A DNA stretch of 64,000 bases. Origin: Eledone cirrhosa (lineage: Eukaryota). The stretch's first letter is position 1, and the number at the start of each line of letters is the position of its first letter. Positions 6,807-57,860 of the stretch are shown here, piece after piece. The position numbers were made by a program, and so were the translations under genes. Where the stretch lies: the NCBI GenBank assembly GCA_964016885.1, contig OZ024756.1, forward strand, positions 28,954,001 through 29,018,000, read 5' to 3'. The notes beneath the pieces were generated by a model. It searched no databases. It was not told the origin of the DNA and saw only the letters and a program-made list of their open reading frames with translations.

Positions 6807-7652
6807 ATAATCAAAGAATTTGATGAAAGAGAGGCAAGTCGTTAAAATACATTTATAAAAAGCTCTTACACATATTTCGCCCAATGGAGCTCTTCCGAGG
6901 CTTTTAAAAAGTAAAGAATTTAATAATTGTTTCTACTTTTGGCACAAGGCCAGCAATTCACCAGTGTATTACTGGTACTTTATTTTATCGACCCCGTAAG
7001 GATGAAAGGCAAAGTTAACCTCGGCGGGATTTGAACTCAGAATGGCAAGGGCCGTAACTCTATGCGTCAAAGCATGGCGTCCAACCTTCTACCGATACTG
7101 CCAATCCACCTTTAGTAAAGAATTTAATCATTGTTTCTACTTTTGGCACAAGGCCAGCAATTACCCAGTACATTACTGGTACGTTATTTTATCGACCCCG
7201 TAAGGATGAAAGGCAAAGTTAACCTCGGCGGGATTTGAACTCAGAATGGAAAGGTCTGTAACTCTATGCGTCAAAGCATGGCGTCCGACCCTCTACCGGT
7301 ACTGCCAATCCACCGCCTGTTGTAAAGTAAAGAATTTAATAATGAACCCTGTACGGGTATGAGTAAGATTTTAACATCGAAATTCATACTTCGGTGTTAC
7401 AGACCTCAGTGTTATTAAATTCTTTATTTTTTTAAAAGCCTCGGAAGAGACCCATTGGGCGAAACATGTGTAAGACCTTTTTATAAATGTATTTTAATGG
7501 CTTGCTTCTCTTTCATCAACTTCTTCGATTATAATTGCTCTGCTTAACTTCGCACACTAAATATTAACGCTTGTAATATTTAACCCTGTTTGCACAAGCA
7601 TCGAGCACGAATACACCTGCTTTTGGCAAATAATTATCTGTATCGTCTCTCT
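6807..7652. mobile_element. Fold-back element with hammerhead-like motif in both arms and two nested SINEs
   Basis: Arms 6807-6927 and 7411-7533 are inverted copies; each has CGGAAGA-stem-GAAA-yatgtg-TA (6858-6905 minus, 7434-7481 plus). Confidence 0.7.
6922..7318 (-). mobile_element. Two tandem SINE family A copies
   Basis: Copies at 6922-7110 and 7128-7318, bounded by three copies of agtaaagaatttaat (6910, 7113, 7326). Confidence 0.85.
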
Positions 7653-7890
7653 ATATACCTCTTCTCTCTCTCCTCTCTCATGATACTGTAACTTTATATT
7701 ATATATATATATATATCCTTCCTACCTTCCTACGGAAATACTTTATATATATATATATATCCTTCCTACGGAAATACTTCATACATTATATATATATATA
7801 TATATATATATATATATATATATATATATATAGAGAGAGAGAGAGAGAGAGAGAGATTACAGTAATCAAAGTTCAGTTTAAGTCATTTAT

Positions 7891-7939
7891 TTGCTTACAA
7901 TTGTTTCCTCCAAACCGAGGTTTGGATTCTTCGGAGCAA
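7891..7939 (-). ncRNA. Type-I hammerhead ribozyme, U4C core variant
   Basis: Minus strand: ttgct-CCGAAGA-atccaaacc/ggtttggag-GAAA-caattg-TA-agcaa, overlapping aataaa. Confidence 0.65.
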
Positions 7940-8405
7940 CTATTTATAACATACTTGACCTCCTTTTCAACCCAAGAGACACATAAAACATATACGCATA
8001 TTGATCAACAGTGGGGTGACATTCATATATATATATATATATATATATATATAAATGGGTGACATTCCTATATATATATATATATAAATGGAAAAGAATG
8101 AAACAAAATTTCATTTCTCACTCTTAGTACGGCTGATACTTACAAACAAACCGAACATTATAATAAATTTTCAGTAAACCCATACGTACATATATATATG
8201 TATGTGAATGTATGTATATATATGTATACATACTACTGTACGTCTGTATACATATATGTATGTACGTATACATACATACTTACACTTATATATATATAAA
8301 TATATATATATATATATATATATATATATATATATATATATGCAATTTAATTCAAGCACTCCACGTACTTTTTCCATATAGTAATGATGGAGTTTGTTTA
8401 GAATA

Positions 8406-8761
8406 AAAAATGCGAAGTAGTTTCAGATGTTAAAGTCCTATATTGATAAGGCTGTGATATATATTTCAATGACGACAGTGGCCACGCGATTCCTCCCAAA
8501 CAGTGCCATGATCTCAAAGCTGCGGAGGGAAATTAGGGCTCACAAGGGAACGGGCGAAGGCTTCAAGAACATCATCTTTGTCCGTTCCCTTGTTGTTTTT
8601 ATTTGGATTGCCTCGAGAAAGTAACCTTATTATGTAAGAAGCTGTCTGATGAGATCATGGCACTGGTTAGCCGGAATCGCGTGGCCACTGTCGTCATTGA
8701 AATATATATCACAGTCTTATCAATAAAGGACTTTAACATCTGAAACTACTTCGCATTTTTT
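8406..8761. mobile_element. Fold-back element with about 110-bp inverted arms
   Basis: aaaaatgcgaagtagtttcagatgttaaagtcc... / ...ggactttaacatctgaaactacttcgcattttt. Confidence 0.8.
8641..8715 (+). ncRNA. Type-I hammerhead ribozyme (canonical core)
   Basis: gctgt-CTGATGA-long stem II-GAAA-tatata-TC-acagt, then aataaa. Confidence 0.8.
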
Positions 8762-8799
8762 TAGTCTCTCTCTCTCTCTCTCTCTGTATATATATTACG

Positions 8800-9855
8800 A
8801 GCATGAAAATAACAACATAGTTAGGATAGCTACTGATCTTGAGGAAAGACATGAAATAAAACCTGATACAATTATCTCTCCCAGGAACATTGGAAAATTC
8901 TACTTGATGCTCGAAGAAAATAACAAAATAGACCAATTCATTGAGAAGATTATACATGCGTACTTGAGACAAAAACGCTGACCATGGAGTAGTTAAACCA
9001 TATTAAAAGCCTGGCATGTAGTTCTAACACATTCATAAGATTTCACCTTAAAGGATACCTCCATGTAATCCAGGAACAAGAAATCCCCACCAAGTACCTA
9101 CTGCACAAAAGAGAAAGGTCATCAGTTGACAATTAATGTAGGCCACATTATTACCAACTGTGAAAGAATGTCTTCTCGTTACTTCTCACCTCTCCATGAG
9201 GCATAATGTGGTAATCAGAACAATATGGAATGCTCCACGGAAGACGAAAATAACAACAAATAGTGAGGAATGTGTTGAGATGATGGCTCAAAGAAATACT
9301 AGTAGAACATAAAAATAAAAACCGCCACCAAATCAAAACGCAACCAGTTTGAGACCAAACATTAAAACATGCTCTGCTGTAGAAGTTAGCTACCCACTTG
9401 ATGTCAATGTAGTAAGAAAAATACAAGAGGATAATATGTACGAACCATTGCTAAGCAGTTTGCTGACCCATTACCCAAAACACTCATCCAGTTTCATAGC
9501 TATTATTATTGGACCAACAGGTGGTTTGGCAGTATTGGTGAGAGTCGGACGCCATGCTTTGTAGCATAGAGTTACGCCCCTCTATGATCTGAGTTCAAAT
9601 CCCGCCGAGATTAACTTTGCCTTTCAACCCTACGGGGTCGATAAAATAAAGTACCAGTAATACACTGGGATAATTGCTGGCCTTGTGCCAAAAGTAGAAA
9701 CAATTATTATTGGAGCAACAGGTTATATACCAACAAGCCTGGACCAAAATATGACTGAAATTAGATCTGTGGAAAAAGAACCTAGCTACTTAATTCATAA
9801 GCTACAAATGGCTGCGATATTTGGAACCTTTCAAAATCTGTAAAAGATTCAATTT
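8800..9855 (+). mobile_element. R4/Dong-clade LINE 3' fragment (zinc-knuckle region and RLE), degraded, with SINE insertion
   Basis: GYLHVIQEQEIPTKYL..HIITNCERMSSRY..RHNVV..VEVSYPLDVNV..IIIGATGYIP..LQMAAIFGT motifs across frameshifts. Confidence 0.7.
9519..9710 (+). mobile_element. SINE family A inserted in the R4/Dong fragment
   Basis: Flanked by attattattggaccaacagg / attattattggagcaacagg (target-site duplication). Confidence 0.85.
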
Positions 9856-10100
9856 GCAGCAGAGAGCAGGGCAAGCATTGTCCTTATGACGACCACGGCC
9901 AGAAAGGCATTGGCAGTTGTCCCCCGCTACTTCTGCTGAAATCCGCTAGACGGCGCTAGCCGTCAACTTTTCAATATTCATAGTTAGAAGGCTTTCCAAA
10001 TATTTATTCGTAAACATACCGTATATCATTAGAAATACGAAACTCACATACTCGGAGGATACCTTTAATTCTCTCTCTCTCTCTATATATATATATATAT

Positions 10101-55960: not shown

Positions 55961-56581
55961 ATTATTTTTGTTACATGGGCGGTGGATTGGCAGTATCGGT
56001 AGAGGGTCGGACGCCATGCTTTGACGCATAGAGTTACGGCCCTTGCCATTCTGAGTTCAAATCCCGCCGAGGTTAACTTTGCCTTTCATCCTTAAGGGGT
56101 CGATAAAATAAAGTACCAGTAATACACTGGGTAATTGCTGGCCTTATGCCAAAAGTAGAAACAATTATTTTTGTTACATGGGCGGTGGATTGGCAGTATC
56201 AGTAGAGGGTCGGACGCCATGCTTTCCAGCATAGTTACGTCCCTTTACGATCTGAGTTCAAATCCCGCCGAGGTTGACTTTGCCTTTCATCCTTAAGGGG
56301 TCGATAAAATAAAGTACCAGTAATGCACTGGGTAATTGCTGGCCTTGTGCCAAAAGTAGAAACAATTATTTTTGTTACATGGGCGGTGGATTGGCAGTAT
56401 CAGTAGAGGGTCGGACGCCATGCTTTCCAGCATAGTTACGTCCCTTTACGATCTGAGTTCAAATCCCGCCGAGGTTGACTTTGCCTTTCATCCTTACGGG
56501 GTCGATAAAATAAAGTACCAGTAATACACTGGGTAATTGCTGGCCTTGTGCCAAAAGTAGAAACAATTATTTTTGTTACAT
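55961..56581 (+). mobile_element. Three tandem SINE A copies separated by a 16-bp target repeat
   Basis: attatttttgttacat at 55961, 56164, 56365 and 56566. Confidence 0.9.
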
Positions 56582-56824
56582 ACATACATCCATACATACA
56601 AGCATACATACATACATACATGTGTACACATAGACATCTATGTGTGTTTGTGTGTGCTTGTATATATATATATGTATGTATATATATATATATATATATA
56701 TATCACCATCATTATCATCATCAACATTAACACCCTCATCCTTGTCCTCCTCCGCATCATCATCGTTGTCTTGGTCAACGGTACTTGATTGATCTGTATA
56801 TGTAAATTCCAAATATATATATTT

Positions 56825-57180
56825 TTTAAATTGGTAAAATTTTTGATGAAATGTTTGTGAAAAATTTTTGGTCAAATTTTTTGGTCAAAATTTTGGTAAA
56901 ATATTTTGGTAAAATTTTTAGTGAAATTTTTTAGTAAAATATTTTGGTAAAATTTTTAGTGAAATTTTTTAGTAAAATATTTTGGTAAAATTTTTTTGGT
57001 AAAATTTTTTGGTAAAATATTTTGGTAAAATTTTTAGTGAAATTTTTTAGTAAAATCTTTTGGTAAAATTTTTTTGGTAAAATTTTTTGGTGAAATTTTT
57101 TATGAAACATTTTTGGGAAAATTTTTGGAAAAACTTTATTGAAAGATTTTAATGAAAATTTTTAATGGAATTTAATGAAA
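56825..57180. repeat. AT-rich short tandem repeat (aaaattttttggt-like)
   Basis: Direct inspection. Confidence 0.8.
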
Positions 57181-57520
57181 GGCGTTGCCTGGAAACGTTC
57201 TGTTTAGACTTTGTCTTACATCTTTGGTAAACTAATATTTTTTATTTTTACCATATTCCGTCGTATTTTGTGTGTGTTTGTGTTTGTGTTTGTGTGTGTG
57301 TATGTATATGTATGGGTGTTTATATATGTGTGTGTATATGTGTATGTTTTTGCATATACATATAAATATATATATACACACATACTTATATGTATATATA
57401 TATATGTATATATATATATATATGTATATATATGTGTGTGTATATATATATATATATATATATATATATATATATATATATATATATATATATATATATA
57501 CATATATATACATATAATTA

Positions 57521-57591
57521 TCCCATTACCCAAGGTTTCACGAAGTCAGACGATTCTAACAGAGGCGCCCGAAGTCGTTCATCAGATAGAA
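57521..57591 (-). ncRNA. Type-I hammerhead ribozyme (canonical core)
   Basis: Minus strand: ttctat-CTGATGA-acga..tcgt-GAAA-ccttggg-TA-atggga. Confidence 0.7.
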
Positions 57592-57635
57592 ATCTTTAAA
57601 GATTTATTTATTTATATATATATATATATATATAT

Positions 57636-57860
57636 AAAGAGATGAAATCGAAAATGCAACTGGAGTCTTATTTTTTTAAAAAATATATATTTATTTGGAA
57701 GAACTGCGAAACCGGTAAAGGAACCAAATAAATATATATATTTTTTAAAAAAATAAGACTCCAGTTGTATTTTCGATTTCATCTCTTTTTCTTTATACTT
57801 TCACTCGTGTAGGACACCTCGGTTAATTTTCAATTTGTAAACAAAACCTCACTTTCTAAT
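57636..57860 (+). mobile_element. Fold-back copy of the 48195 family, broken at hammerhead stem II
   Basis: Arms 57636-57698 and 57725-57789 around aagaactgcGAAAccggTAaagg. Confidence 0.8.

Follow-up and report, generated by a model that had tools for sequence, protein, structure and literature searches.

The window analysed here, 64,000 nt of Eledone cirrhosa contig OZ024756.1, contains short repeats built of two back-to-back arms with their 3′ ends facing outward. These are 5′-truncated ends of Penelope-like elements, joined head-to-head in (TA)n. Copies of the same families were examined in a genome sample of 1.9 Mb of Eledone cirrhosa DNA.

Inverted pairs in the window

Inverted, outward-facing arms were found at all of the places named in the initial annotation, and the features, with families named as in the text, are as follows.

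5853..6093, family 5857 pair: tail-less arm at the family stop, and a tail-only arm
6806..7413, minus strand, family 6810 tail-less arm: two SINE copies from about 6927; hammerhead-like motif near 6873-6900
7412..7695, plus strand, family 6810 tailed arm (160-nt tail): begins 22 nt 5′ of stem I
8345..8761, family 8406 pair: tailed minus-strand arm 8345-8516 ending in the core; tail-less plus-strand arm 8515-8761 with the whole hammerhead
10102..10294, family H pair: left tail; centre identical to that of a young subfamily with at least 30 copies
10313..10723, family 10473 pair: tailed minus-strand arm 10313-10599; tail-less plus-strand arm 10595-10723; stem II junction
10743..10945, family 10473 pair: tail-only arm and tail-less arm, 25-nt insert
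11199..11368, family H copy: palindrome over 11261-11368; counted as a solo copy in the pipeline
11550..11732, family H pair: left tail
25232..25418, family 25236 pair: tail-less minus-strand arm with its end (25340) in stem II; tail-only plus-strand arm
32513..32664, family 32617: tailed minus-strand arm ending at the family stop; short, interrupted plus-strand arm
32737..33379, family 32737 pair (tandem-unit family): tail-less minus-strand arm to 32948; tailed plus-strand arm 32950-33379; hammerhead 33055-33095
34277..34485, family H pair: left tail; 10-nt junction insert
35964..36173, family H pair: right tail
38224..38448, family H pair, third subfamily: right tail
44051..44181, family 44051 unit 1: tail-less minus-strand arm ending at GAAA; tail-only plus-strand arm
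44227..44450, family 44051 unit 2: tail-only minus-strand arm; tail-less plus-strand arm from the family stop
45050..45218, family 10473 pair: tail-less arm and tail-only arm
47652..48158, family 47661 pair: minus-strand arm keeping 14 nt of tail; plus-strand arm that begins at 48003, within the core
57627..57858, family 57636 pair: tail-less minus-strand arm to 57698; tailed plus-strand arm from the stem II loop of a U3-A8 core variant

The pairs at 5853-6093 (beyond the range covered earlier), 10743-10945 and 45050-45218 are additions to the earlier list, from which tails had also been omitted (e.g. 7534-7695, 8345-8405 and 10313-10472). Breakpoints previously placed inside the core lie at 8515/8516 (near 8515) and at 48003 exactly, and those assigned to stem II were recovered at 10595-10599 (given as 10597) and in the long stem II of five family H pairs. 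The break at 32642, just 5′ of the core, is a junction at about 32643, the 5′ edge of stem I, and the one at about 57700 lies at 57698, where one arm runs from the stem II loop and its partner stops 3 nt 3′ of stem I. Position 33108, described as close to the motif, is mirrored by the junction at 32948/32950, 13 nt 3′ of stem I. Two readings held in part. An arm does end at the GAAA near 44104, but 44051-44450 is not one pair; it comprises two head-to-head units, and in both of them a tail-less arm meets a tail-only one, with junctions at about 44104 and 44266/44288. Likewise, the end at 25340 is in stem II but is not a bare truncation, as it joins a tail-only arm. Position 6927 is not a breakpoint but the edge of a SINE that is present in 6 arms of the family and absent from 4; in family 6810 the two arms actually meet at 7412/7413, 22 nt on the 5′ side of stem I.

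Across the sample, (TA)4 adjoins 251 of 276 inner ends and 245 of 277 outer ends, against a background of 12%. Tails are 56-167 nt long, pair interiors range from zero to >900 nt, and solo 5′-truncated arms form the majority of copies in several families. Families 47661, 32737 and 25236 consist of tandem units. Junction counts leave out family 39816 (31 junctions), a mix of diverged relatives, together with duplicates (6 calls and one locus, L113). With family 44051 as the query, genome searches gave zero matches and missed even the copy in the window; the copies of this family come from DNA already in the sample.

Coding parents and the hammerhead motif

Long copies of families 6810, 10473 and 48946 lead 5′ into GIY-YIG-like frames, of Hydra type in 6810, and long 10473 copies also reach RT-like motifs, as judged by eye. 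Atlas scores for the parent frames were 0.95-0.96. Of 8 pieces compared with Pfam, 3 had no match, 4 had only unrelated matches below the cutoff, and one, near family 57636, matched GIY-YIG below the cutoff (E=0.001); the frame there looks Neptune/Penelope-like going by its cysteine pattern. Through these frames, families 6810, 10473 and 48946 are tied to a coding parent, as family 57636 probably is. The sampled DNA contained no linked coding frame for families H, 8406, 44051, 32617, 5857, 47661, 32737 and 25236, for which membership of the Penelope-like elements rests on architecture.

The frames of families 6810 and 10473 include a CxCX5C linker plus, at the C terminus, GIY-YIG with CxxC and CxH, and RWK and DKT motifs are present in one 10473 copy. 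Judged by protein motifs, hammerhead and (TA)n targets, both would be Hydra-type. They share with the Hydra clade, as described in PMC8557442, the CxCX5C linker, the CxxC/CxH endonuclease, the hammerhead and the (TA)n targets, and the 10473 family also the RWK and DKT motifs. The remaining families here were not tied to Hydra proteins, and the assignment is made from motifs in frames that are not intact.

The hammerhead motif in the pseudo-LTR was identified by hand, core and helices, in 14 family references, and several are core variants, e.g. U3-A8. Rfam reported no hammerhead in five loci at the gathering score, nor among the best 150 of 349 matches over the window, and the predicted folding of seven motifs in the window does not exceed that of shuffled sequences (z -1.55 to 0.88).

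Tails, stops and joints

Each family has two discrete 3′ ends and each pair has one of each. Exactly one arm carries the 3′ tail in 257 of 266 classifiable pairs (153/160 untargeted), where independent arms would give one-tail pairs in half of cases; the exceptions are six tail-less and three two-tailed pairs. The tail is on the arm with the shorter 5′ reach in 99 pairs and on the other in 40 (99/139; untargeted 62/80). In 30 of 301 pairs, 28 after dropping two atypical ones, one arm begins within the tail. Such a tail-only arm has no sequence in common with its partner. The ends of these arms are spread across the tail rather than placed at the inner start site, where a blocked polymerase might have stopped, a point against the twin priming proposed below. 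Thirty family H copies share a single fixed, asymmetric centre; 16 of them have their tail on one side and 14 on the opposite side.

A single sharp 5′ stop occurs in each of nine families, and solo copies show it too where they were tallied. Some stops fall inside the ribozyme and others up to about 100 nt ahead of it, five of the nine lying 41-103 nt away; that of 44051 is 60 nt 5′ of stem I and that of 32617 is the 5′ edge of stem I. The share of ends inside a 12-nt stop window is 121/198 in H, 52/82 in 32617, 29/69 in 57636, 13/29 in 5857 and 10/31 in 44051. The 6810 stop is broad, and none of the tandem-unit families 47661, 32737 and 25236 has a sharp one. The motif TATAWAW lies 30-33 nt upstream of the stop in four of the nine families (10473, 57636, 32617 and 5857; background 1.3%), the distance window of 28-33 nt having been chosen after three of the four cases were known. 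In long copies of 32617 it is 30 nt before the stop. The box is absent at the other five stops, that of H, the strongest pile-up, among them. The family stop is likely to be the 5′ end of the copied RNA, as these motifs suggest.

Solo H copies joined to TA number 83 at the stop versus 4 ten bases further in. Scored for a cap-derived G, the base at the joint in the 83 is C in 45, G in 32 and A in 6, the control site having 4 copies; the local G background is 13% if one shared base is used in joining and 35% if two are. A splice acceptor at the H stop was considered and dropped, as the AG is itself part of the ends, which scatter over some 12 nt. Inheritance of H pairs from a single palindromic master, a reading that had come from a search with a query spanning the centre, was also dropped, as the 74 untargeted junctions nearly all differ.

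Junctions are formed anew per copy. Overlap at the joint has a median of 2 nt versus 1 nt simulated (70 non-H, insert-free junctions; p=6e-7), and inserts occur at 33-40% versus 9%. Natural hairpins give rise to perfect palindromes in some copies, with overlaps of 14-42 nt. A comparison of arm-to-arm with copy-to-copy divergence, proposed in the initial annotation, found the arms within a pair to be more alike in 10 of 10 families, and chimeras of H subfamilies are rare (1/67 and 0/49). Such likeness would also be compatible with two RNAs of one source copy, or with later gene conversion.

Formation of the pairs and relation to known systems

We consider it probable that the pairs are made by twin priming in (TA)n from two start sites, with run-off at the RNA start and joining by microhomology or end-joining. 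Two priming events on opposite (TA)n strands had been one of the options raised earlier, and the one-tail rule, the tail-only arms and the TA flanks support it. Both target strands, once nicked, would serve as primers for separate cDNAs, one beginning at the inner start site and the other at the outer, both probably on the same RNA, whose 5′ end would be set by a promoter within the pseudo-LTR. The inner-primed cDNA would tend to run off at the RNA 5′ end, the outer-primed cDNA would have to displace it and would stop sooner, and the two cDNA 3′ ends would then be joined. A wider proposal is put forward tentatively, as possible rather than probable: twin priming may be routine on one RNA with two programmed sites, and a promoter in the 3′ pseudo-LTR may yield short capped RNAs, with their 5′ ends recorded in thousands of genomic junctions. 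If so, the tail, the inverted repeat and the MITE-like stubs would all follow from one model. A literature search found no twin-priming or promoter-run-off account by title or abstract, within a coverage that mostly excludes subscription papers, including the 2005-2006 Penelope reviews.

It is unlikely that the stops are instead a founder effect, in which each family is dominated by a few short, already truncated sources, which host promoters or adjacent TA runs may drive, and the pile-up is their 5′ edge. Such sources would suit the H stop, with no TATA box and few long linear H copies (depth 6 vs 191), as well as the H subfamily in which at least 30 copies repeat one centre and the four 57636 pairs with a nearly identical junction. 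However, four families have long linear copies in which the TATA box precedes the stop by 30-33 nt, the pile-ups of all three H subfamilies coincide in one part of stem II although their arms differ, and the copies at the stop have no upstream flank in common. Twin priming of the pairs would be compatible with founders.

Published readings, in the accessible parts of the sources, are self-priming (PMC3846280) and endonuclease-mediated resolution (PMC8557442). Self-priming or snap-back to build the mirror arm, with one tail later trimmed by the endonuclease, is very doubtful here. The short overlaps, the matched arms and the hairpin-derived palindromes would fit, but the tail-only arms have no template in their partner, so that simple snap-back is unable to make those pairs, and the tail is mostly on the arm expected to be made second.

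A stall of reverse transcription at the hammerhead itself, or a fold-back on it, was the main idea of the initial annotation, and is now highly improbable. Among the 17 window junctions, 8 (5 from family H) have the end of the shorter arm within the hammerhead, and 13 have an end of at least one arm there. Clustering at the ribozyme stands strongly for H (75 of 79 short-arm ends, 29.8 expected) and for 32617 (20 of 31, 12.9 expected), and seven named non-H families, targeted copies included, give 36 of 136 against 25.2. Family 47661 gives 20 of 49 against 10.2, an excess that 3′ bias and the choice of query confound. The pooled other families are not above expectation: the remaining untargeted short-arm ends number 16 of 70 against 13.8 (p=0.29), and ends downstream of the stop, in families other than H and 32617, 28 of 103 against 29.9, or 65 of 181 against 63.5 with targeted data. 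In 32737 only 2 of 32 ends lie in the hammerhead, five families have stops 41-103 nt away from it, no stop coincides with the predicted cleavage site, and the window motifs fold like shuffles. The pile-ups are family-specific stops that solo copies share, and crowding in the hammerhead appears to be confined to families whose stop is at or inside it. The stall idea fails as a general rule.

That these are ordinary MITEs, bounded by terminal inverted repeats plus a duplicated TA, is virtually impossible, for although TA flanks, inverted ends and the fixed centre of one H subfamily resemble them, the unequal ends of the one-tailed pairs already refute this reading (a target duplication is unreadable within (TA)n), as do the variable interiors, junctions that differ per copy, solo 5′-truncated arms and long copies entering RT and GIY-YIG frames. 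The repeats are retro-derived stubs, as had been suspected despite their MITE-like look, and a MITE-like palindrome in genomes of this kind can represent a stub of a retroelement.

The many young copies yield quantitative rules, namely one tail per pair, tail-only arms and a stop 30 nt after TATA, that favour twin priming over self-priming. In LINE-1 twin priming, a single RNA is copied from primers on both strands of the target, the inversion is joined by short microhomology and the two segments barely overlap. Unlike in LINE-1, both segments here begin near the 3′ end and usually duplicate each other, tail-only pairs excepted.

The layout itself is already published for Penelope-like elements, and these families are further examples. 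Inverted pLTRs, which the initial annotation gave as known for Penelope, have the same layout in the accessible text of PMC3846280 and PMC8557442: 5′ truncation, an adjacent inverted truncated copy, a tail at one end, a pseudo-LTR hammerhead, junction palindromes and partial tandems. In contrast to those insertions, tails are 56-167 nt here rather than 30-40, and most copies are non-coding stubs. Self-priming is proposed there, and in that text neither the side of the tail nor the place of the junctions nor a shared 5′ stop is counted. The origin of inverted repeats and one-sided tails is called open in PMC8557442, and later steps are described as unvalidated in PMC11167929.

As far as the accessible text of PMC11167929 goes, Anolis Poseidon in vitro nicks and extends both strands of an AT-rich target, with two internal starts bounding the tail; the Penelope-like protein is modelled as a dimer, and ribozyme cleavage is not required, all of which is in keeping with twin priming. 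The families here are alike in target, and would be in the use of both strands and of two start sites and in dispensing with ribozyme cleavage, but that work reports no start-site difference between strands and does not address inverted pairs or 5′ joints; the rules above are testable in that existing system. The Drosophila virilis Penelope promoter, in the accessible part of PMC2377424, likewise starts transcription within the pseudo-LTR, at an initiator there; it is TATA-less with a downstream element, whereas four families here have a TATA box.

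Paired copies and their two 3′ ends

The window is a stretch rich in repeats from an animal genome of 3.0 Gb. Copies were gathered by searches of this genome and from extracted stretches (332 sequences, 1,909,310 bases), and the window elements were also checked. Fourteen family references were built, the families being mostly numbered by window position. BLAST called 338 head-to-head junctions between 5′-truncated Penelope-like ends (arms), and 301 remained once 31 belonging to a mixed family and 6 duplicate calls had been taken out. Of these, 180 were untargeted, meaning that the query of their own family had not picked them.

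Inverted arms with 3′ ends outward are present at all places where the initial annotation reported them, and its breakpoints at 8515, 10597, 48003, 57698, 33108 (mirror of 32948) and ∼32643 and at the family H centres were recovered. At 6927, also named as a breakpoint, the left arm merely runs into a SINE, and the true junction is at 7412/7413. The supposed single fold-back at 44051-44450 is actually two units, each composed of a tail-less arm and a tail-only arm (one that starts inside the tail described below). A private variant common to the tail-less arms of both neighbouring units (2 arms in the window versus 18 elsewhere) suggests either a local duplication or a single complex event that involved four primings. 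Further observations in the window are:

6208, 33589, 39816, 48946, 57536, 57928 and 58261: additional solo stubs (copies with no inverted arm) of other families, with a hammerhead.
6927-7343: two SINE units in the family 6810 copy, at a fixed 3′ UTR site where part of the family carries a SINE retrotransposed along with the element (6 arms with, 4 without; also L093).
10102-10181: one instance of GAGYRC, a motif that recurs within a short hairpin-like setting in otherwise unlike tails of 9 of the 14 families.
14082-14501, 25706-26686 and 47104-47666: open frames that presumably resemble LINE fragments, the last adjoining and truncating the tail of the 47661 element.
49712-49783: a tRNA match (34.8 bits, Rfam), possibly a SINE head.
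54620-55300: a tandem array with a unit of roughly 30 nt, a piece of the common SINE.

Every family has two discrete 3′ ends, overlooked initially, the outer lying 56-167 nt beyond the inner and thereby adding a tail. One inner and one tailed end were found in 257 of the 266 pairs classifiable at both ends (none tailed in 6, two tailed in 3), with partial tails scored as tailed and a further 35 pairs unclassifiable. Query 57636 picked out tailed copies; in the untargeted set by itself the count is 153/160. The tailed arm reaches less far 5′ in 99/139 pairs, and 30/301 pairs include a tail-only arm. Among 30 young H copies sharing one asymmetric centre, the tail lies on one side in 16 and on the other in 14.

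Junctions, the ribozyme and 5′ stops

Shorter-arm ends were compared with a uniform position between the end of the longer arm and the tail. The proposed clustering of breakpoints at the hammerhead holds in family 32617 (20/31, 12.9 expected) and in family H (75/79, 29.8 expected), where the count is slightly inflated by two long linear pairs, L177 and L252, whose junctions fall outside the reference or where the sequence has diverged. All other untargeted junctions, taken together, show no hammerhead enrichment (16/70 versus 13.8 expected, p=0.29). Seven named non-H families gave 36/136 (25.2 expected) with targeted copies included, a set in which the queries force one arm across the region 3′ of the ribozyme. 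The cross-family test rejects a general ribozyme effect.

Nine families each have a single sharp stop, where arm 5′ ends pile up; the best 12-nt windows start 5′ of stem I in eight of them (by 103, 100, 71, 60, 41, 10, 9 and 3 nt); the H window starts 45 nt inside it. No hammerhead excess was found among all ends downstream of these stops, either in untargeted data (28/103, 29.9 expected) or once targeted data restricted to the unbiased range were added (65/181, 63.5 expected), and 47661 was the sole family with one (20/49, 10.2 expected). Solo copies use the same stops, and genome-wide the H solos joined to TA start at the stop in 83 cases versus 4 at a similar position 10 nt deeper in the element. 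The stop follows a TATAWAW box by 30-33 nt in 4/9 families (background 1.3%), the distance window having been fixed after three cases were seen. In Drosophila, too, the Penelope promoter is situated in the pseudo-LTR (PMC2377424). Judged from sequence, the stops probably represent run-off at the RNA 5′ end.

In L252, both arms carry internal deletions that end close to the stop of family H, as would be expected had the polymerase jumped to it. Family H has a long stem II, only the 3′ half of which is kept in most copies, and the hammerhead cores of H, 57636 and 25236 carry a compensatory U3-A8 variant.

Origin of the pairs

Simple snap-back, in which fold-back copying makes the second arm, is ruled out for the tail-only pairs because such a copy cannot hold sequence missing from its template. 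Variants are common to the two arms of a pair in each of the 10 families examined (marginally in 8406), with few H subfamily chimeras (1/67 and 0/49); this fits one source, though not necessarily one RNA molecule. Junction overlaps exceed those of simulated blunt joints (non-H median 2 versus 1, p=6e-7; H p=4e-4), and inserts occur at 33-40% of junctions versus 9%. In vitro, nicks in either strand prime extension, synthesis begins at two sites that delimit the tail, and ribozyme cleavage is not needed (PMC11167929). Taken together, the tails, arm variants, junctions and these in vitro findings make twin priming followed by end-joining of the two products the most economical account; how its steps follow one another, and their use of a single RNA, are inferred.

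Relationship to known elements

In families 6810, 10473 and 48946, long copies extend into GIY-YIG-like frames, and in 10473 also into RT-like motifs. Atlas scores of family frames were 0.95-0.96 and Pfam support was weak. The linker and endonuclease motifs of the Hydra clade are present in the 6810 and 10473 proteins, and one 10473 copy also has RWK and DKT (compared with PMC8557442, section 11). The other families are assigned to Penelope-like elements from architecture only. (TA)4 adjoins 251/276 and 245/277 ends (background 12%). The paired stubs are not MITEs, in line with the initial annotation, which took these MITE-like copies to be probably retro-derived.

Non-coding units arranged head-to-tail in tandem, each with a single hammerhead, occur in family 47661 (unit of about 486 nt) and family 32737 (about 430-450 nt) and resemble retrozyme arrays (L141-L170, L191-L220).

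The account combining twin priming with promoter run-off was not found among the titles and abstracts searched or in passages of the cited papers, of bioRxiv 10.64898/2026.07.22.740005 and of PMC8969392. This analysis adds the cross-family test, the distance from TATA box to stop and the number of tail-only pairs. The pair layout is already known: PMC3846280 and PMC8557442 describe palindromic junctions and pseudo-LTRs in inverted orientation, of which one bears a tail.
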